From assembly GCA_963806635.1 (NCBI GenBank), contig CAWDZA010000002.1, positions 68,048-100,047 on the forward strand: DNA of 32,000 nucleotides, read 5' to 3'. The notes beneath the pieces are model-generated. The model saw only the letters and a program-made list of their open reading frames with translations. It had not been told where the DNA came from and made no database searches. Below, piece after piece: positions 2,406 to 32,000 of this stretch. The stretch comes from an uncultured Chloroflexia bacterium (GTDB taxonomy: Bacteria; Chloroflexota; Anaerolineae; Anaerolineales; Anaerolineaceae). The position numbers and the translations under genes were made by a program. Every line of letters starts with the position of its first letter. The first letter of the stretch is position 1.

Positions 2406-4915
2406 TTATGCCGGCTCCGCCACCTTCTCGCGCTTGACCTTCACCTTTTTCTTCTTTGTCAGGATGATCTCCCCGGCTTTATCCAGGTCGATCCAGATGA
2501 TATCCCCATCCACGAACTCGCCGGCCAGCAGTTTATCCGAAAGGGCATCCTCGATCTTCTGCTGGATCACGCGCCGCAGCGGACGCGCGCCCATTTCGGG
2601 GTCGTAACCCTCATCCGCCAGCTTATTCAAGAGCCTCATCGGTGGCTTCCAGGGTCAGGTTGTGCTCAGCCAGGCGGTCGGAAACCTTCTTCAATTCCAG
2701 GGTCACGATCTCGCGGATCTGCTCGCGATTGAGGGCATGGAAGACGATGACCGAATCCAGGCGGTTGAGGAACTCGGGGCGGAAGACCTTTTTGAGCGAA
2801 TCCAGCAGGGTCTTGCGCATGTCGTCGTACTTCTGCTGCTCCTCGATGGCTTCATCGCGGGTGAGCTGAAAGCCGAGCGAGCCCTGCCTGCGGATCTCCT
2901 CCGCGCCGATGTTGGTGGTCATCACGATGATCGCGTTGCGGAAATCCACCTTGCGCCCCTTGGCATCCGAAAGATGCCCCTCCTCCATGATCTGCAGGAG
3001 CATGTTGTGCGCCTCGGGGTGGGCTTTCTCCACCTCGTCGAACACGACGATGGAATAGGGCTTGCGGCGGATGGCTTCGGTGAGCTGACCGGCTTCATCA
3101 TAGCCGACATAGCCAGGAGGCGCGCCCACCAGGCGGCTGACGGTGTGACGCTCCATGAACTCGGACATATCCAGCTGGATCATCGCGTCTTCGCTGCCGA
3201 AGAGGAAACGGGCCAGGGTCTTGGTCAGCTCGGTCTTGCCCACGCCGGTGGGACCCAGGAAGATGAAGGAGCCGATGGGGCGCTTGGGATCTTTGAGCCC
3301 GGCGCGCCCGCGCCGCACGGCTTTGGAGATGGCCTGGATGGCTTCCTCCTGCCCGACGATGGAGGTGCGCAGCTCATCTTCCATGTGCAGCAGGCGCTCG
3401 GATTCGGCGGTGGCCATCTGCATCACGGGCACGCCGGTCCACATGGAAACCACCTCGGCGATATCGTCGGCGGTGACCACGGGGCTGGTGGAGCGTTCCC
3501 AGGTGGTGCGCATTTTTTCCAGCTGAGCGTTGATGCTGCTTTCCCGGGTCAGCAGTGCCTGGGCTTCATCCAGCCGGCCATCTTCCACCGCGGTGGTGTG
3601 GCTCTGGCGCACTTCGCGCAGCTGGGTCATCAGGTCCTTCTGGGCTTTGGCCTGCGGGGATTTATACATGCGCACCCGCGAGGAGGATTCATCGATCAGG
3701 TCGATGGCCTTATCCGGCAGGAAGCGGTCGTTGACGTAGCGGGCGGAAAGGCGCGCGGCGGCTTCGAGGGCTGCATCGGAGATCACCAGGCGGTGGTGCT
3801 CTTCGTAGGGGGTGCGGATGCCGCGCAGGATCTGGATGGTCTCCTCCACGGTGGGTTCATTGACCATGATGGGCTGGAAGCGGCGCTCGAGGGCGGCGTC
3901 GCTTTCGATATTCTTGCGGTATTCATCGATGGTGGTGGCGCCGATCACCTGCAGCTCGCCGCGGGAAAGGGCGGGCTTGAGGATGTTGGCGGCATCCACC
4001 GAGGAACCGGCAGAACCGGCACCCACCAGCATGTGGACTTCATCGATGAAGAGGATGGACTTGGTGGCTTTGAGCTCGTCGATCACGCGCTTGAGGCGCT
4101 CTTCGAACTGACCGCGGTACATGGTGCCCGCCACCAGCGAGCCGACATCCAATTGAAGGACGCGCTTATTCGACGAGCGGCCCGGGGACATCCCCGGCGA
4201 TGATGCGCTGGGCGAGCCCTTCGATGATGGCGGTCTTGCCCACGCCGGGTTCGCCGATGAGGGCGGGGTTATTTTTGGTGCGGCGGGCCAGCACCTGGAT
4301 GACGCGCTCGATCTCCATCTGGCGCCCGATCACGGGGTCCAGCTTGCCTTCCTCGGCCTTGCCGGTCAGATCCGTGGCAAGCTGATCGACCAGGGGGGTT
4401 TTATCCTTCTTGCCGGATTCCGGTTTCTGCTGGGCGGTCTTATCCCCGCTGGCGGTGGTGGCACTGCCTGCCAGGCTGTTTTCGTTGAGCACGCGGTAGG
4501 TCTGGCGCCGGATCTGCTCCTGGGTGACGCCCAGCTTGCGCAGCACTTCCTGCCCGGCATCCTTGGTGGAATGGGTGAGGGCCAGCAGGAGGTGCTCGGT
4601 GCTGATGTATTGATTGCCCATGCGGCGGGCTTCCTCGATGGCCAGCTCCAGCAGCTCCTGCGTGCCGGGGGAAAGATCGATCTTGCCCTCGCGCTGCTCG
4701 CCATATCCGCCGATGCGCTCGACCATCTCCCGCACGCGGTCGGTCTCCAGTCCCAGGTCGCGCAGGACGCGCGAGGCGATGCCTTCCTCCTCCTCGATCA
4801 AACCCATCAGCACATGCTCTGTGCCGATGAAAGGCTGGCGAAAGCTTTCAGCAGCCTGGTGGGCCAGGCTGAGGACGTGGCGGGCGCGTTGGGTGAAGCG
4901 TTCCATTCCGGGCAA
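2406..4915 (-). CDS. clpC: ATP-dependent Clp protease ATP-binding subunit ClpC, disrupted by two frameshifts (~4180 and ~2635)
   Basis: ORFs 4166..4915, 2623..4191 and 2406..2639 join in order: Clp_N repeats ([19 protein letters not shown]), [10 protein letters not shown] Walker [15 protein letters not shown]-like middle region, [45 protein letters not shown]. Confidence 0.95.
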
Positions 4916-15831: not shown

Positions 15832-18139
15832 TCACTTTCCCCCTGCCAGGAACATCGTTTTTCCGTCCGTGGTCACCACCAACTGCCCGTTGTCCGCAAC
15901 TTGTATCCAGGAATTGTCTGGCGCGGGCTGCACAGTGTCGTACCAGAGGATCCCCAGGGCAGGCAACGAGTTCCACTCCGCTGGAGGAGAAGCCACCAGG
16001 TCGTTTTTTCCCAGAAGGACGAGTGAAGGAGGGGAGCGGCGCGCACTTTCTTTTAATTCCTGCGGAGAAAAACCACCCGGCAGGAGCAGAGAGAAATTTT
16101 CGTAATCGAATACCAGCGCGGTACCGCTTTCGCCGGAGGCGAGCACCCTCAGGACCAGTCCGGGTTCGAGCTGATAGGTCTGTCCTGCTTCCAGGACGCT
16201 GCTCTTTGCGCCATCCTGCCGCAGGGTTGATTCCAGGCTGCGGGTGGCAGAATTGGCCGGGACAGCCCCGCCCCACAGGACGTTGTTCACCTGCACCTGC
16301 TCGGCGAGGAACGGCAAGCCGGCAAGGGGGCTGGCCTGGGCGTCAGTCAGGATCAACCCGTCCAGCCGGCGCTCGAAGGGGGAGAGCCGCGCATCCACCC
16401 GGGCGGTCAGCTCGCGCCCGTTGGCGGCGCCATTGATCAGGTAGGCCTGCCCACGCGGGGTGAGGATCAGGACCGCATGGCTGTTATCCAACCCTGGCAG
16501 CAGGATATGCAACCTGCCATCCGGCCGGGAGGCAGCTTCCATCCAGGCGGCCAGGGCAGCAATGCCGCAGATGGTGAGCAGAATGGCCGGTTTTGCCTGC
16601 GCTGGGAACCGCTTTGCGAGGAGATAGAGCCCTGCAGCCAGCGCCAGCAGCACAACGATCCACACGAAACCAGACTCGGATACTTTGAACGCCCCACCAA
16701 GATCGGAAAACGCTTCCACGATGCTTATCGTGTAGGTCAGCGGAACCAGGGCGAACCATCCCAGCAGGGAGCCCAGCGGCAAATAGATCATTCCACCAAC
16801 CATCGCCGCTGCACCCAGCATCATCACCAGCGGCTGGGCAGGAAGGATCAGTGGGTTGGCGAGGATGGCGCTCAGCGAGATCTGGTGGAAGTGCCAGGCC
16901 ATCAGCGGCAGGGTGGCGATCTGGGCGGCAAGCGTCAGCAGAACGTATTCTCCCACCGGCACTGCGATCCCACGCGCCTTCCCCGGAGGCATCCGTTTTT
17001 CCAGCCAGGCAGAGAACCAGTGAAGCAGACGGGTTACCCAGGACGATCAGCCCCAGGGTGGCGGTGAACGAAAGCTGAAAGCTGACATCCCAGAGCAGGT
17101 AGGGATCGAAGAGGCACATTACCGCGGCGGTGAGGACCAGGGTGTTCAGCCCTGATCCGCGCCGCCCGATCTGCATGCCCAGGATGGCCATGGCGCCCAT
17201 AATGGCTGCCCTCATCACCGCCGGCTCCATGCCTACCAGCAGGGAGTAGAGAAAGACCGCGATGATCGAGAATATCGCTGCTTTCCAGCGCGAGGTAAAG
17301 AGCCGCAGCGCCCAGAATACGAAAGCTGAGACGATGGCGATATTGAATCCGGAGATGGCGATGATGTGGGCGGTACCGGTCTGCTGGAAAGCGTTGGTGA
17401 GGTCATCGGGGAGATCTTGATCCAAACCGAGCAGGATACCATTCAGCAGCGCTGCTTGCGGCTGGGGCAGGATCTGGTTGATGACTGTGTAGCCCCGCAG
17501 ACGGAGAGAATATAGAGCGACGATGAGCGGGTTACCGTGCCCGTGTGACAATACTTCGATTTTGGGAAAGGCGACCAGGGTCTGGATGCCCTGGCGGGCG
17601 AGATATTCGCGGTAGGAGAAGGTCTCATCCTCAGGCGGGGTCTGCGGCTCTCCGGTGATCCTGAGCATGTCGCCATACTTGACCTCCGTTCCGGGCCGGG
17701 TTTGCACCTGGATCCTGCCGGAAGAGGGGGCGATTCCGGCTCCTTCCGACACGACATCGGCTTTGAATGAGGTTGTTTTCCCATTCGTTGTTGGCAGACT
17801 GGTGACGACTGCCGAGAAAGTTATCCCGCCGCGGTCATTTTGAGAAGCGATATGGTCAGGAGAAAATGAAGTAGTTTGGACAGGGTATCGCCATGCGCCC
17901 AGGGCTAGCGCGGCCAATAGATACTGCGAAGCGGAAGAGGGACTGATTCTGCGCCAGGATTGGAGCAGGTGCACACGGGCGGTGAAGCGCTTTTCCAGCA
18001 CCGCGAGAAGCGCACTGAGGATGAAAATTACAAATAGAACAGGTTTGGGAATGGTGCTGACGCTGCCCAGCCAGATGCCTGCGAGGAATGCTGTGGAGAG
18101 CCAGAGCAGGGGCATGGGGATATTATAAATAAGGCTCAA
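15832..18139 (-). CDS. comEC: ComEC/Rec2-family DNA uptake protein, one frameshift near ~17020; C-terminal MBL-like domain degenerate
   Basis: ORF 16484..18139: LLNGILLGLDQDLPDDLTNAFQQTGTAHIIAISGFNIAI, GMEPAVMRAAIMG, DPYLLWDVSFQLSFTATLGL. ORF 15832..16992 continues the membrane domain and then the MBL-like region. Confidence 0.9.
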
Positions 18140-26233: not shown

Positions 26234-27664
26234 TTACACGAACTTGATCTTGCCCATGGCGAAGAAGACCATTTTGAGCAGCATCCAGCCATGCTTCCAG
26301 CGCTGAATATTGGTCGTCCCATACACCCGTTCCTGGTAGCGGATGGGCAGATCCACGATCTTCAACCCCAGTTTGTCAGCTCCGAGGAGCAAATCAAAAT
26401 CACCGAAGGGATCGAACTCCCCAAAATAACCCCGGTTTGCCGCGATCCGTTCGTAGTCTGCTTTCCAAAGCACCTTCGTGCCGCAAAGGGTATCCTTAAT
26501 CGGTTGACCCAACGTCCAGCGGAAAACCAGGCTGAAGGCTTTGTTGCCCAGCAGGTTGAGGGGGCGCATGGCGCCGCCTTCCATCGGATAAACCAGGCGC
26601 ACCCCATTGATAAAATCGCCTTTTCCGCTCGCGATGGCTTCATAGAAAGCCGGTAGATCTTCCGGTGCCACAGTCAGGTCTGCATCCAGTATCATCAGAA
26701 TATCGCCCGAAGCGCGCGCGAACCCCTCCCGGACAGCGTCCCCCTTCCCCGTTCCCGTTTGCCTGAAAAGGGATGCCTTGCATACCGGGTTCGAGAGGAT
26801 CGCATCTTCGATCGCTTTGTAAGTATCATCCTTTGAGTGACCTTCCACGAAGATCAGCTCTGTTCCGCCCCCCATTTCCGGCACTCTTCGGAAAATATCC
26901 GCGATGTTTCCGGCTTCATTCCGGGCGGGGACGATCACGCTGACCCTGGGAAGTGGTTTGCGAGCGGATGGCTGGGGCAATGGTCTGGCCATGATGATAT
27001 TGGTGAGAGCAAAGTAATGAAAGGGCCAGATCTTGACCAGGAATTTATTGAAAAATGAATTGAGCAGCGGGATTGGTAAGGGAAAAAGGATCTCGTGCCA
27101 GTGGCGCAGAGATTCGAAACCTTCGAGGGAAAGCAGGTTGCGGATATCGTCCGGGGTCAGCCAGTTCTGGGGTAAATTGGGCCTGGCCAGACCCACGACG
27201 GCAGCAAGGGAAAGGATGGGGGACCACATCCGGCTGTAGAAATTGATGATAATGCGGGTTTTGGGGTTGCAGCAGCCCCGCAAGGCGCCAAGTACCTGCT
27301 GCACGTTCCACAGGTCGTTGACCAGGTCCGAAAGGATAACGTAATCAAAAGTACCATCCCCTTCGAACTGGTGCGCGTCCATTTCCAGGAATTCCAGCTC
27401 GGGGTGATTTTGCCGGGCGATGGCGATCATTTCCGGGCTAAAATCCACGCCAAGCCCGCGCGCAGGCTTGAGGCTGGCGAGAAGATCGCCTCCCCCGCAG
27501 CCGAGCTCCAGGACAGACGCACCTTCGGGAATGAGGAAGCGGAGGAATTCCGCCAGACGGCGGTGATAGGCTTTTCCAGCCGACCAGCGCTTTGTATCGC
27601 GGGCGATGTTGTTCCAGTGCTCCACCCGCCCGCGGGTGTAAAGTTCCTGTTTTGCCTGGGTCAC
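26234..27664 (-). CDS. Bifunctional class I SAM-dependent methyltransferase / GT2 glycosyltransferase fusion
   Basis: N-terminal half: SVLELGCGGGDLLASLKPARGLGVDFSPEMI. C-terminal half: RVSVIVPARNEAGNIADIF, ELIFVEGHSKDDT, GKGDAVREGFARASGDILMILDADLTVAPEDLP. One uninterrupted 476-aa ORF. Confidence 0.88.
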   Translation of the reverse strand: MTQAKQELYTRGRVEHWNNIARDTKRWSAGKAYHRRLAEFLRFLIPEGASVLELGCGGGDLLASLKPARGLGVDFSPEMIAIARQNHPELEFLEMDAHQFEGDGTFDYVILSDLVNDLWNVQQVLGALRGCCNPKTRIIINFYSRMWSPILSLAAVVGLARPNLPQNWLTPDDIRNLLSLEGFESLRHWHEILFPLPIPLLNSFFNKFLVKIWPFHYFALTNIIMARPLPQPSARKPLPRVSVIVPARNEAGNIADIFRRVPEMGGGTELIFVEGHSKDDTYKAIEDAILSNPVCKASLFRQTGTGKGDAVREGFARASGDILMILDADLTVAPEDLPAFYEAIASGKGDFINGVRLVYPMEGGAMRPLNLLGNKAFSLVFRWTLGQPIKDTLCGTKVLWKADYERIAANRGYFGEFDPFGDFDLLLGADKLGLKIVDLPIRYQERVYGTTNIQRWKHGWMLLKMVFFAMGKIKFV

Positions 27665-28338
27665 ACCTTATCCACCCCGGTCGCTTCCAGCTCTTTCACC
27701 CTCGGATTGTCCCGATACACCCCGCGGTACTCCTCCGGCAGCAGCACAGCCATTCGGCACATCACCTCGTCCGTCCAGCGCTCCATCTCCGCTTCGCGGT
27801 TCTCCCGCCCGATCTCGGGGATGACAATCGGCGGGCCAAAAGTCGCCTTCATCTTCGGCTTCCGGAAGTGCAGCAGCTCGCGCACACCGTTTGCTGTCCC
27901 GGTGATCCCAACCGGCACGATCGGCGCCCCGCTGCGAATTGCCAGGAAGACAATACCGGATTTGCCCGGCAGCAAGCCCCCAGTGGTGCTGCGGGTGCCC
28001 TCCGGGGAAACCCCCAGGCAGCCGCCTTTCTTTAAATGATCCAATCCAGATTTAATGGCGGTGAAATCGGCAATATCGCGGTCGATCCAGATGGCTTCTC
28101 CCATCCAGGCCAGGGGGGCGATGAGAAGGTTCTTTTTGTATTTGGTGGTGAGCACGCAGGTGATATCCGGGCGGGCAGGGATATCAAGGAGTACCGGGAT
28201 ATCTAGCCGGCTGAGATGATTGGTGGCGATCAGCACGCCGCCCGAGGGGGGGAGGTATTCCATCCCCTCGTAGGATGTTTTCGTAAGTGCTTTTAGCAAA
28301 TAGTGAACGATGCTAAAAAGGAATTCCCGCTTTCCCAT
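27661..28338 (-). CDS. 1-acyl-sn-glycerol-3-phosphate acyltransferase family (PlsC-like)
   Basis: NHLSRLD (HX4D motif), GVSPEGTRST, PIVPVGITG. Confidence 0.88.
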   Translation of the reverse strand: MGKREFLFSIVHYLLKALTKTSYEGMEYLPPSGGVLIATNHLSRLDIPVLLDIPARPDITCVLTTKYKKNLLIAPLAWMGEAIWIDRDIADFTAIKSGLDHLKKGGCLGVSPEGTRSTTGGLLPGKSGIVFLAIRSGAPIVPVGITGTANGVRELLHFRKPKMKATFGPPIVIPEIGRENREAEMERWTDEVMCRMAVLLPEEYRGVYRDNPRVKELEATGVDKV

Positions 28339-28502: not shown

Positions 28503-30101
28503 TCATTTCTCCTGGATGGTCACCGAAAGGATCGTATCCGCGGTGGGCAGAGTGCCGCCCTGGGAAGGATCGCGTTTGGTGAGCGCGTTGACCACGTCCA
28601 TACCCTCCACCACCCGGCCAAAGATGGTGTAATTGCCATCCAGGTTGGGCTGTGGGGCGAGGGTAATAAAGAACTGCGAACCATTCGTTCCGGAACCTGA
28701 ATTAGCCATGCCCAGAACGCCGGCGGCGTCAAACTTGAGATCAGGGCTGATCTCATCCCCGAACTGGTAGCCCGGTCCGCCCAGGCCCGTGCCGGTGGGG
28801 TCGCCCGTCTGGGCAACGAAGCCATCCAGCACACGGTGGAAGGGCACGCCATCGAACCATTTATTTTGGGCCAGGAATACCAGGCTGTTGACGGTGAGCG
28901 GGGCCTGCTTCGCAAAAAGCTCCACCACGATATCACCCTTGGTGGTCTGGATGGTGGCAGTATATTGCTTATTGGGGTCGACCACCATCGGCGGGCATTC
29001 CTTATATGACTTCTGCTCCAGTTTCCAAATATTCAGAACGGCATCCAGGTTTTCCTTGCTCAGTCCGATGGAATCGTTTGGATCCACGTTCACGGCAAAG
29101 ACAAGTTTGCCGCCCATTTCAATGAAGACGGAAGGCGTGGCGTTGACGCCCACATTCCCCGCCGCGGTGCGGAACTCTTCCACTTTCTTGACCATGGCAT
29201 CGCTTGTGAGGTCTTTGGTGAACTGCTCTGCATCCAGTCCAATTTCACCTGCTTTTCCAATGACCCAGGTCTGAAAGTCCTCGGGGGTCATCGCAGCCCA
29301 GGTCTGCCAGGTATCCGGGTTGAAGAGCACGTCGTGCATCTCCCAGAATTTACCTTGCAGGGAGGCTGCTTCGGCCGCCTGGAGGGCGATGGCGGATTTA
29401 TCGTGGCTGAGAGGGAAGTGCCGGTAAACGAAGCGGACGTCGTTGGGGTTGTCTTTGATGAATTGCTCCATCACGGGAGCAAGCTGGGCGCAGTACGGTC
29501 AGGTAAAGTCTGAATATTCGATGATGGTCATCACCGCATCTGCAGGACCTTTAACATAGTCCGTGCTGCTGACGGGCGGCAGTTTGGCAGCGTACTCCGT
29601 TTTCTCGGGTGGGAAGATCGAGGTGGCTGGCAGGCATTCACCAGGTTTGGCACCCACGATCTCCGGCACGGCCGTGGCAGCGGAGGGGGTTAATTCATTT
29701 CCGGCTGACTCCACCTGGGTGGTGCTCGCGCTGTTCTGGCTGCCGATGGGCAGGAATCTGCCCGCCAGCCCCGCGCCAACGATCAGCAGCAGGACAACAA
29801 CTCCGCCGAGCACATACAGCCAGGTGCGGTTCTTTGGTTTTTGCGCCGTTCCGGGAACTTCGTCAGGCGTTTTTACGCTCTTATCCGCTGCATAGCGGTC
29901 GTAATCCGCCCGGCGGGTTTTATCGGAAAGCACCTGGTAGGCTTCCTCGATGGCGGCAAAGTCCTTTTCCGCCTTGTCTTTCTGGGCGGGGTCCTCGAAT
30001 TTATCGGGGTGGAATGCCTGAAGGAGGAACTGGTAGCGCTCCTCAATTTCCTTTTTGCTCGCGTTCTTTGGGACACCAATAATATCGTAATAATCTTTCA
30101 T
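28503..30101 (-). CDS. Candidate selenoprotein: DnaJ-like J-domain, TM helix, thioredoxin/DsbA-like domain with U-P-Y-C motif (TGA at 29499-29501), cyclophilin-type peptidyl-prolyl isomerase
   Basis: ORFs 29499..30188 and 28503..29474 share one frame (30188 and 29474 are both 2 mod 3) and are split by a single TGA. Sequence: [15 protein letters not shown]...[10 protein letters not shown] (HPD); [21 protein letters not shown] (TM); [11 protein letters not shown]-[TGA][31 protein letters not shown] (Trx/DsbA-like); [20 protein letters not shown]...[25 protein letters not shown]...[13 protein letters not shown] (cyclophilin). Start is taken as the ATG at 30101. Confidence 0.75.
29463..29482 (-). 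promoter_or_regulatory. Putative bacterial SECIS-like hairpin downstream of the in-frame TGA
   Basis: mRNA: UGA-(CCGUACUGCGCCCAGC, 16 nt)-UUGCUCC-CGUGAU-GGAGCAA. Perfect 7-bp stem, 6-nt loop with G at loop position 2; the loop begins 23 nt after the UGA. Confidence 0.5.
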
Positions 30102-30105
30102 ATAT

Positions 30106-30735
30106 CTACCTCTCTTGGATTGCCGGCAGGCGGGAATCGACCGCCGCACGAATTTGGGATTGTACCACACTGCTTTCGTGGGCGGCATCGATGACCACCC
30201 AGCGCTGAGGCGCTTCCGCGGCCAGCTTCAAGTAACCGGCGCGCACCCGCTGGTGCAGCTCCAGCTGGTAATCGTCCATACGGTTCCATTCACCTCCGCC
30301 GCTTTTGCGGCGTTTCAAGCCCTGCTCGGCGTCTATATCCAACAACAGGGTCAGATCGGGAACGAGGCCCCCTGTGGCGAAATTCAGTATCTGGCGCAGC
30401 TGATCCAGGTCGTTGCCATGCCCGTAGCCCTGGTAAGCCAGGGTGGAATCGGCGTAGCGGTCGGAGATGACCACCTCGCCTTTTTCCAGATGAGGGCGAA
30501 TCACTTCGGCCACAAGTTGGGCGCGGGCAGAGCAGAAGAGCAGGGTTTCGGTGCGCGGATCCATGCCCTGGTTGCGCATGTTCATCAGGATCTCCCGCAC
30601 CTGGTCGCTGATCTCGGTACCCCCCGGTTCGCGGGTGGTAAGGACGGTGTACCCCTGCGAGCGTAGATGATCTGCCAGGGGCAGCATCTGGCTGGTCTTT
30701 CCGCTTCCATCGGGGCCTTCAAGAGTAATGAACAT
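30106..30735 (-). CDS. tmk: Thymidylate kinase
   Basis: MFITLEGPDGSGKTSQ, TREPGGTEISDQVREIL, DRYADSTLAYQGYG; the ORF extends to 30828 but the likely start is MFITLEG. Confidence 0.95.
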   Translation of the reverse strand: MFITLEGPDGSGKTSQMLPLADHLRSQGYTVLTTREPGGTEISDQVREILMNMRNQGMDPRTETLLFCSARAQLVAEVIRPHLEKGEVVISDRYADSTLAYQGYGHGNDLDQLRQILNFATGGLVPDLTLLLDIDAEQGLKRRKSGGGEWNRMDDYQLELHQRVRAGYLKLAAEAPQRWVVIDAAHESSVVQSQIRAAVDSRLPAIQER

Positions 30736-30862
30736 ATCTATTTTTCGTTTCGCAGAGGCGCAGGGGAGGGAAAAAGCGTGCAGGCGAAGCATGGAAATGC
30801 AAGGTAGAGTACCATTCTGCTTCGGCAATCGTGTTTTAATCTTTGCATCTCTACGTTAACCA

Positions 30863-32000
30863 TCAATCTTTAAATATCCGCACCCGCCGGTTGGGATCCT
30901 TGCCGTAGGAATGCGAAACGAGCTCCGCCTGGCGGGCCAGGTCGTGCTGCAGGCGGCGGACGGAGGGTGTTGCGGGTGGCAGGTCCACAAAGCGCTGCCC
31001 GTTGAGCACCGCCTGGATGGCAGCCTGGGTCTGCTCGGCGGCGGATTCGTAATCACCATTCACATATCCGCCGGAGGGCAGGTTGAAAAGCTCGCCCAGG
31101 GCCTGTTCCATCTGGGTGACGGTGTTGGCGCGCAGGACGTAGATCGGTGACGCCGCGGGCTTCGGCTTCCAGGATCACCTGCTGGCGGTTGCGGTAGTAG
31201 GTGCGCAGGGTGATGAGCACCTCGGCATCGCCGGGCTCGCGGGTGATGATGGCCGGCACGCCCATGCGTTTGGCAGCCTGCAGCAGGCGGTTGCGTGCCA
31301 CCCCGTAGGGATAAATACGGATCGCGGGCAGCGCGGAGAGTTCCGGCGGATACTGCTCGCCATTGGTCACTTCCTCGCGGCGGCGAGGTTCGCGATCGGT
31401 GGAAAGCGGGGTACCCTCCACCCGCAAAGGTGCGGCGCTGCCCCTGCACAGCCTGGCGCTGGATGGGCGGGGTGGAGGCTTTTTCGGTGTGGATGCCGCC
31501 TTCGGCATCCCGCGAGCGGATCTCGGGGTGCAGCGGGTAGCCGCGCACCAGTTCATCCACCGCTTCGGCCACATCGTGGATGAACGACCAGCCGGTCGCG
31601 TTCCTGGATCTCGACCAGCACGTCGAAGGTGGGCGGGGCGCGGCGCTCGAGGACGGTCTTCTGCGTGCCGCGGCGGCGGGCTTCTTCATCAGAAAGGGTC
31701 ACGGATTCGATCCCGCCGATCAGGTCGGAGAGGGTGGGGTTGAGGAGCAGGTTTTCGAGGGTGCGTCCGTGGGCGGTGGCCACAAGCTGCACACCGCGCT
31801 CGGCGATGGTGCGGGCAGCCAGGGCTTCCAGCTCGCGCCCGATCTCATCGATGACGATCACCTCGGGGTTGTGGTTCTCGACTGCCTCGATCATCACCTC
31901 ATGCTGCAGGGTGGGCAGTGCGCACCTGCATGCGGCGCGCGCGTCCCACGGCCGGGTGGGGCACATCGCCATCCCCGCCGATCTCGTTGGAGGTATCCAC
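30863..32000 (-). CDS. R3H domain / SpoIIIAA-like (Ycf45-type) AAA ATPase, 5' end outside window, several frameshifts
   Basis: [26 protein letters not shown] (31925-32000), [102 protein letters not shown], and C-terminal R3H: LFNLPSG...[29 protein letters not shown]. The pieces lie in different frames. Confidence 0.85.

Follow-up and report, generated by a model that had tools for sequence, protein, structure and literature searches.

A probable selenocysteine codon in a DsbA–cyclophilin fusion gene of uncultured Anaerolineae

Does the TGA codon that interrupts a gene for a thioredoxin-fold protein in an uncultured member of the Anaerolineaceae end translation, record an error, or encode selenocysteine (Sec)? 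The question was raised by a minus-strand locus in a 32,000-nucleotide stretch of contig CAWDZA010000002.1 (assembly GCA_963806635.1), which was analysed as a whole and is referred to here as the window. Translation of positions 28503–30101 gave a single frame, running from 30101 to 28503, of 533 codons, in which the sole internal stop was codon 201, a TGA (29501..29499) that replaces the first cysteine of a DsbA-type CPYC motif in the context EYSDFT-U-PYC. We put a probability of roughly 0.92 on this being one intact gene that would encode selenocysteine through standard bacterial Sec decoding.

The locus had been listed as two open reading frames (ORFs), 29499..30188 and 28503..29474, and the original prediction, made from the letters of the window, held that these lie in one frame, that the TGA stands at the first cysteine of a CxxC motif and that the family normally reads DFxCPYC. 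All three statements were confirmed: the TGA alone separates the two ORFs, Pfam places it inside the DSBA/Thioredoxin_4 domain (residues 180–335), and full-length homologues have DFTCPYCAQ at this position. The start codon is probably the ATG at 30101, upstream of which lies a GAGAGG Shine-Dalgarno-like motif, and one orthologue (L003) begins with the same MKDYY as the window protein. At the shared …IQEK end, the terminator was TAA, TAG or TGA among orthologues.

Conservation of the in-frame TGA and its cysteine counterparts

In the protein search, the ten closest database proteins (61–99% identity; JGI, ENA and Logan sources) were 318–322 aa long and all began with MEQF or MEQL, nine codons past the TGA, while homologues at about 60% identity and below were full-length and carried the cysteine motif. 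The DNA of five of the loci with truncated products had TGA at the same codon and an upstream ORF ending there in frame. These five loci originate from separate metagenome samples, obtained from two JGI projects, an ENA assembly and a Logan run. A contig from another metagenome (L128) was 97.2% identical across the gene with zero gap opens, and the TGA was present in it as well.

Scanning of one genome per GTDB species yielded 80 loci, nearly all of them from metagenome-assembled genomes (MAGs) of Anaerolineae/Chloroflexota. Sixty-five were parsed by a motif regular expression, the other 15 being unclassified, and the codon for the first cysteine was TGA in 22 and TGC or TGT in 43. The TGA forms compared comprised 27 sequences, i.e., the window and 26 other loci (22 of them GTDB species representatives), which spanned roughly 45–97% identity and came from independent Illumina and long-read assemblies. 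The homologue search thus found one column with 27 TGA and 43 TGC/TGT forms, and two features by which selenoprotein genes are recognised, a Sec/Cys pair and a UGA conserved within an open frame, were both seen.

The DNA pattern of the TGA together with a downstream hairpin, described below, was found in at least 120 metagenome stretches, with 106 distinct peptide variants among the matches listed; all 120 listed stretches had the context [DE][FYL]x-U-PxC and a frame that was open on both sides. The argument that the placement of the TGA lies beyond chance was borne out: all 26 other orthologous loci, as well as these metagenome stretches, had TGA at this codon. At least 145 loci, including 22 GTDB species representatives, carried the Sec-form gene, and the stop at the Sec position was always TGA in them, never TAA or TAG.

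The downstream hairpin and neighbouring tRNA-Sec genes

A 7-bp hairpin with the loop consensus CGUGWU was present 16 nt downstream of the TGA in 27 of 27 TGA forms (Table 1). Its stem varied between loci (UUGCGCC/GGCGCAA, UUGUGCC/GGCACAA, UUGAGCC/GGCUCAA, AUGCUUC/GAAGCAG and UUGCGCU/AGCGCAA) in such a way that 98.9% of the cells in the alignment of TGA forms were paired, with compensatory changes on both sides in six of the seven pairs. None of 500 shuffles matched the observed pairing, controls slid along the alignment paired at 24–55%, and RNAalifold independently predicted the same helix. Third-codon-position entropy was 0.39 bits in the hairpin codons vs. 1.35 bits in the flanks. The hairpin was absent from the Cys forms (n = 43), in which only 0–5 of the seven positions at the same offset can pair.

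The published model of the bacterial selenocysteine insertion sequence (bSECIS) specifies a loop of 3–9 nt, a stem of 4–16 bp, a G in the first two loop positions, a spacing of 16–37 nt between UGA and loop and a minimum free energy (MFE) of at most −7.5 kcal/mol (PMC13188914). The hairpin of the window fell within these constraints, with a 6-nt loop (CGUGAU), a 7-bp stem that begins 16 nt past the UGA, an apical loop 23 nt past it and, when folded alone, an MFE of −9.9 kcal/mol (z = −3.26; none of 200 shuffles was as stable).

A search of all fetched loci with ARAGORN identified a gene for tRNA-Sec (selC) in nine of them, all of the TGA form, located 177–4203 bp upstream of the selenoprotein gene and in divergent orientation (Table 1). 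Rfam model RF01852 confirmed seven of the nine (68.6–76.2 bits; gathering score, 47); the tRNA-Sec sequences of L123 and L200, which were outside the Rfam run, are identical to that of L097. At least 2 kb of upstream sequence was available for 72 TGA-form loci, of which seven had selC within 2 kb; selC was absent from all 43 Cys-form loci. For a gene present in a single copy, such linkage greatly exceeds chance expectation, although several of the nine loci are from related lineages. In L097, an ORF resembling class-I S-adenosylmethionine-dependent methyltransferases lies between selC and the selenoprotein gene.

The Sec and Cys forms were interspersed in an approximate neighbour-joining tree, and a homologous hairpin occupies the same position in all Sec forms. 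Because of these two observations, the simplest reading, although not proven, would be a single origin of the Sec form followed by repeated Sec-to-Cys replacement, which fits the 'dynamic evolution' described for selenoproteins (PMC1794560); a neighbour-joining tree cannot separate such a history, with Sec as the ancestral state, from others. One Cys form (L029:155-220; TGC) still encodes the peptide imposed by the SECIS, …CAQAAPVMEK…, with its hairpin reduced to three of seven pairs, and looks like a recent Sec-to-Cys conversion.

Table 1. Features of the selenoprotein locus, other genes of the window and tRNA-Sec genes of orthologous loci. Positions refer to the window unless a locus is given.
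Feature	Position	Strand	Remarks
Whole selenoprotein gene	28503..30101	-	532 residues and terminal TGA stop
Predicted Sec codon UGA, residue U201	29499..29501	-	Stands for first Cys of UPYC motif
C204 codon, second (resolving) Cys of UPYC	29490..29492	-	Invariant in homologue alignment
True terminator, TGA read as stop	28503..28505	-	Orthologues end at same residue (…IQEK)
bSECIS-like hairpin	29463..29482	-	UUGCUCC (29482..29476), loop CGUGAU (29475..29470), GGAGCAA (29469..29463)
J domain, residues 3-68, HPD at 31-33	29898..30095	-	PF00226, 65.4 bits (cut-off 27.8)
Transmembrane segment, residues 94-116	29754..29822	-	Single, hydrophobic; read from sequence
DsbA-like thioredoxin-fold domain, residues 180-335	29097..29564	-	PF13462, 70.5 bits; PF01323, 58.7 bits (gathering score 25.6)
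Cyclophilin-type peptidyl-prolyl isomerase, residues 383-527	28521..28955	-	PF00160, 145.3 bits (gathering score 21.7)
Conserved neighbours of the selenoprotein gene	30106-30828 and 27661-28338	-	Synteny
ComEC	15832-18139	-	Frame switch near 17029
SpoIIIAA-like/R3H ATPase gene	30866-32000	-	Several frame switches
ClpC	2623-4915	-	Split into two overlapping ORFs
selC of orthologous loci	L051:5552-5645, L097:5765-5860, L120:3103-3194, L123:3219-3314, L143:1452-1547		
selC of orthologous loci, continued	L145:1137-1230, L172:380-475, L200:2088-2183, L205:7800-7895		

Orthology of the TGA-bearing genes was supported by synteny, as L003, L004 and L005 share with the window the arrangement SpoIIIAA-like/R3H ATPase – thymidylate kinase (tmk) – selenoprotein gene – acyltransferase. 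In some loci a PrsW-like protease is encoded between the selenoprotein gene and the acyltransferase gene.

Alternative explanations and the case for selenocysteine

One base change (TGC to TGA) would suffice if the stop were an error of sequencing or assembly, or if a nonsense mutation confined to this strain had turned a Cys-type DsbA–cyclophilin gene into a pseudogene. The window does contain assembly-type defects: ComEC, the R3H ATPase gene and ClpC are all frameshifted. These three genes look like the result of indel errors in long-read assembly, in agreement with the initial observation that the remaining gene disruptions in the window are indel frameshifts. The selenoprotein gene, in contrast, showed no indel relative to the independent 97%-identical contig, which likewise has TGA, and the codon is not confined to one assembly: close relatives carry it too, as do the 26 other orthologues and the metagenome stretches (at least 120), which represent many projects and sequencing platforms. 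The frame is open and conserved on either side of the TGA, and the covarying hairpin co-occurs strictly with it. With the TGA conserved across independent assemblies, an error or pseudogene was rejected and has next to no chance of being correct. Two TGA forms from long-read MAGs appeared truncated (L077:10145, 201 aa without the cyclophilin; L050:10043, without the N-terminus), probably owing to assembly frameshifts rather than to biology.

Public gene calls divide the locus in two, as would be expected if the TGA were a real stop that separates an N-terminal membrane anchor ending in …DFT from a truncated DsbA–cyclophilin of ~322 aa, with the hairpin in a regulatory or coupling role. Possible starts past the TGA exist, either an ATG (Met210) or a GTG or TTG in the region of the hairpin loop. 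However, this division would sever the thioredoxin fold at its active site and leave the downstream product without a signal or anchor and without the first strand of the fold, whereas the Cys homologues are single continuous proteins. Position 210 lacks conservation, with Leu instead of Met in many TGA forms, and the exclusive use of TGA in at least 145 loci, the bSECIS geometry of the hairpin and the selC neighbour in nine loci further speak against two separate proteins, which we consider very improbable. The UGA could also be read as another amino acid (Trp, Cys or Gly) through near-cognate or suppressor decoding or a lineage-wide code change, given that UGA reassignment occurs in some uncultured bacteria and that the residue inserted at codon 201 is predicted from sequence. 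A lineage-wide recoding was ruled out because TGA is the ordinary terminator of many window genes and of the selenoprotein gene itself (28505..28503). Moreover, the read-through codon aligns solely with the redox cysteine, only SelB-type recoding calls for a dedicated hairpin downstream, and genuine tRNA-Sec genes lie beside orthologues, so that insertion of a different residue appears very improbable.

Selenocysteine at the catalytic first cysteine, as claimed in the original prediction, was supported by the Sec/Cys pair, the conserved UGA and the covarying hairpin that is restricted to TGA forms, and further backed by the use of TGA as a normal terminator of other window genes and by the tRNA-Sec genes adjoining orthologues. 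Several observations count against it. No selA, selB, selC or selD was found within the 32-kb window by the tRNA search and a Pfam scan of 20 ORFs, and tblastn with the Escherichia coli SelA, SelB and SelD gave no matches in the window and ~2 Mb of loci, an uninformative result as this covers ~0.5% of each genome. The cultured relatives retrieved (Longilinea arvoryzae, Bellilinea caldifistulae, Thermanaerothrix daxensis and T. solaris) all have Cys forms, and the Sec forms come from MAGs and metagenomes only. The fold of the whole 81-nt region was unremarkable (z-score −0.5), with only the hairpin standing out, and we infer the biochemical role of the product from domain homology alone. Single-cell genomes of Anaerolineales, and also Anaerolinea thermophila, have been reported to encode SelB (PMC4959059). 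The tRNA search detected no tRNA genes of any sort in the window, and no obvious redox partner (DsbB, VKOR or CcdA) was seen in the Pfam scan of its 20 ORFs.

If selenocysteine is encoded, the hairpin 16 nt past UGA201 would act as a bacterial SECIS element and would recruit SelB·GTP·Sec-tRNASec, with SelB binding as the predicted step, such that selenocysteine is inserted at codon 201. Translation would then run on to the terminal TGA, where no such hairpin follows, and the predicted product would start with a J domain in the cytoplasm, cross the membrane by one helix and continue outside it with a DsbA-like fold, which bears the redox site U201-P-Y-C204, and a cyclophilin.

Domain architecture and likely function

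The Pfam scan of the protein, in which Cys was put in place of the internal stop, gave matches above the gathering scores for the DsbA-like and cyclophilin families (Table 1). The UxxC motif (U201-P-Y-C204) stands at the helix-cap position, and a cis-Pro loop was recognised at T322-P323, with T-P-S invariant in the alignment. The order J domain – transmembrane helix – DsbA(U) – cyclophilin is common to the window protein, L001, L003, L006 and L007, and the J domain is predicted to be cytoplasmic. Most other TGA forms (about 415–445 aa) are lipoproteins that have a signal peptide and lipobox where these proteins have their J domain and helix. A J domain also occurs among Cys forms (P0085 and P0117). 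The DsbA–cyclophilin module would lie outside the cytoplasmic membrane in all of these forms. The J-domain signature is HPE in L006 and L007 and kept as HPD in the window protein, L001 and L003; the domain may be degenerating in part of this subclade.

The nearest solved structures by sequence were 3gyk, the Corynebacterium DsbA 4pwp and Bacillus subtilis BdbD (3eu3), with E-values of 1e-8 to 2e-16. An AlphaFold (AF2) model of P0011, the nearest full-length Cys homologue, was confident, with a predicted local distance difference test (pLDDT) score of 89.4 and a predicted template modelling (pTM) score of 0.81. In this model, CPYC (residues 99–102) lies at the start of a helix (100–115) and T220-P221 just ahead of a strand, as a cis-Pro loop would. 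A Foldseek search of the model against the PDB returned cyclophilins with a target-normalised TM-score of up to 0.89; these matches were single-domain cyclophilins, and no solved two-domain analogue was among the results. Apart from the redox site, the window protein has two further cysteines, C156 in KPGEC (29634-29636) and C369 in KECPP (28995-28997; both minus strand), which are nearly invariant in the family (C54 and C263 of P0011). They may form a structural disulfide that ties the N-terminal extension to the DsbA–cyclophilin linker.

As judged by its domains, the protein is most likely a membrane-tethered extracytoplasmic foldase that would combine selenol/thiol-disulfide exchange at U201/C204 with prolyl isomerisation. 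According to its predicted topology, the foldase module would work at the outer face of the membrane, where the selenolate would attack disulfides or thiols of substrates and selenenylsulfide intermediates with C204 would be formed and resolved, the fused cyclophilin meanwhile isomerising prolyl bonds. The redox direction (oxidase, isomerase or reductase) and the substrates of such an enzyme are putative. Selenocysteine has a lower pKa and a higher nucleophilicity than cysteine, properties that could confer a selective advantage here.

Relation to known selenoproteins and significance

DsbA-like UxxC selenoproteins were first described in 2005 in the Sargasso Sea selenoproteome (PMC1088965). 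The family was also listed later (PMC1794560), the DsbA-like selenoprotein was counted in 41 organisms in 2016 (PMC5029168), and a 2026 review lists both 'DsbA-like protein form 1, PF01323, UxxC' and a 'DsbG-like' selenoprotein family under NF041057 (PMC13188914). The window protein shares with DsbA-like form 1 the DsbA-type fold, the UxxC motif, a bSECIS directly downstream, widespread Cys homologues and an occurrence in anaerobes. The Sargasso Sea sequences of form 1 correspond to COG2761 and the carriers listed later include Deltaproteobacteria and Clostridia, whereas the window protein belongs to Anaerolineae (Chloroflexota), is of the BdbD/Thioredoxin_4 type and is fused to a cyclophilin, and the anchor in its family is either a lipobox or a J domain with a transmembrane helix. 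The best NCBIfam match, over residues 126–325, was NF041057 (Rcas_1661 family thioredoxin-like (seleno)lipoprotein), which likewise comprises thioredoxin-like UxxC lipoproteins in both Sec and Cys versions. Its 247-position model aligns to the DsbA-like region only, however, and the window protein has a J domain and transmembrane helix but no lipobox; membership was rejected, the score being 75.1 bits against a cut-off of 190.

BdbD (3eu3), the actinobacterial DsbA (4pwp) and 3gyk resemble the window protein in being extracytoplasmic DsbA-like oxidoreductases with a CPxC helix-cap and a cis-Pro, but they contain Cys instead of Sec and are single-domain proteins without a fused peptidyl-prolyl isomerase. 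At the RNA level, the closest parallel is the SECIS of E. coli fdhF, also a hairpin in the coding region directly 3' of the UGA, with a small apical loop bearing a G and then a U and with a spacing in the 16–37 nt range of the consensus model. The sequence of the window hairpin is unrelated to that of fdhF, and binding of SelB is predicted here.

The 2026 review makes no mention of cyclophilin, DnaJ, Chloroflexi or Anaerolineae (PMC13188914), and no description of a cyclophilin fusion, J-domain anchor or selC linkage was found in the literature searched. On the evidence of its sequences, the family is a well-supported, widely distributed and mis-annotated addition to the known DsbA-like selenoprotein class. 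Three of its features stand out: the cyclophilin fusion, the anchoring as a lipoprotein or through a J domain, and the recurrent linkage to selC. A bolder reading is possible but doubtful: the protein might be an undescribed type of selenoenzyme that unites a Sec site like that of protein disulfide isomerase and a prolyl isomerase in one foldase, linked to selC in some lineages and, in the subclade of the window, coupled by its J domain to Hsp70 (DnaK) across the membrane. If this were true, the Sec machinery of many sediment Anaerolineae would be retained in large part for this foldase.

This selenoprotein of sediment and wetland Anaerolineae is absent from annotations and from selenoproteome counts because public gene calls split the gene and name its downstream half 'peptidylprolyl isomerase', the label given to the truncated products by both NCBI and JGI. 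Its recognition leaves the known principles of Sec decoding unchanged; it would correct these annotations and extend the known Sec enzymes by an extracytoplasmic foldase. The natural series of Sec and Cys forms with a covarying SECIS offers material on why Sec is kept or replaced, and the DsbA–cyclophilin fusion and its J-domain-anchored form suggest testable ideas on extracytoplasmic protein folding in anaerobic Chloroflexota.

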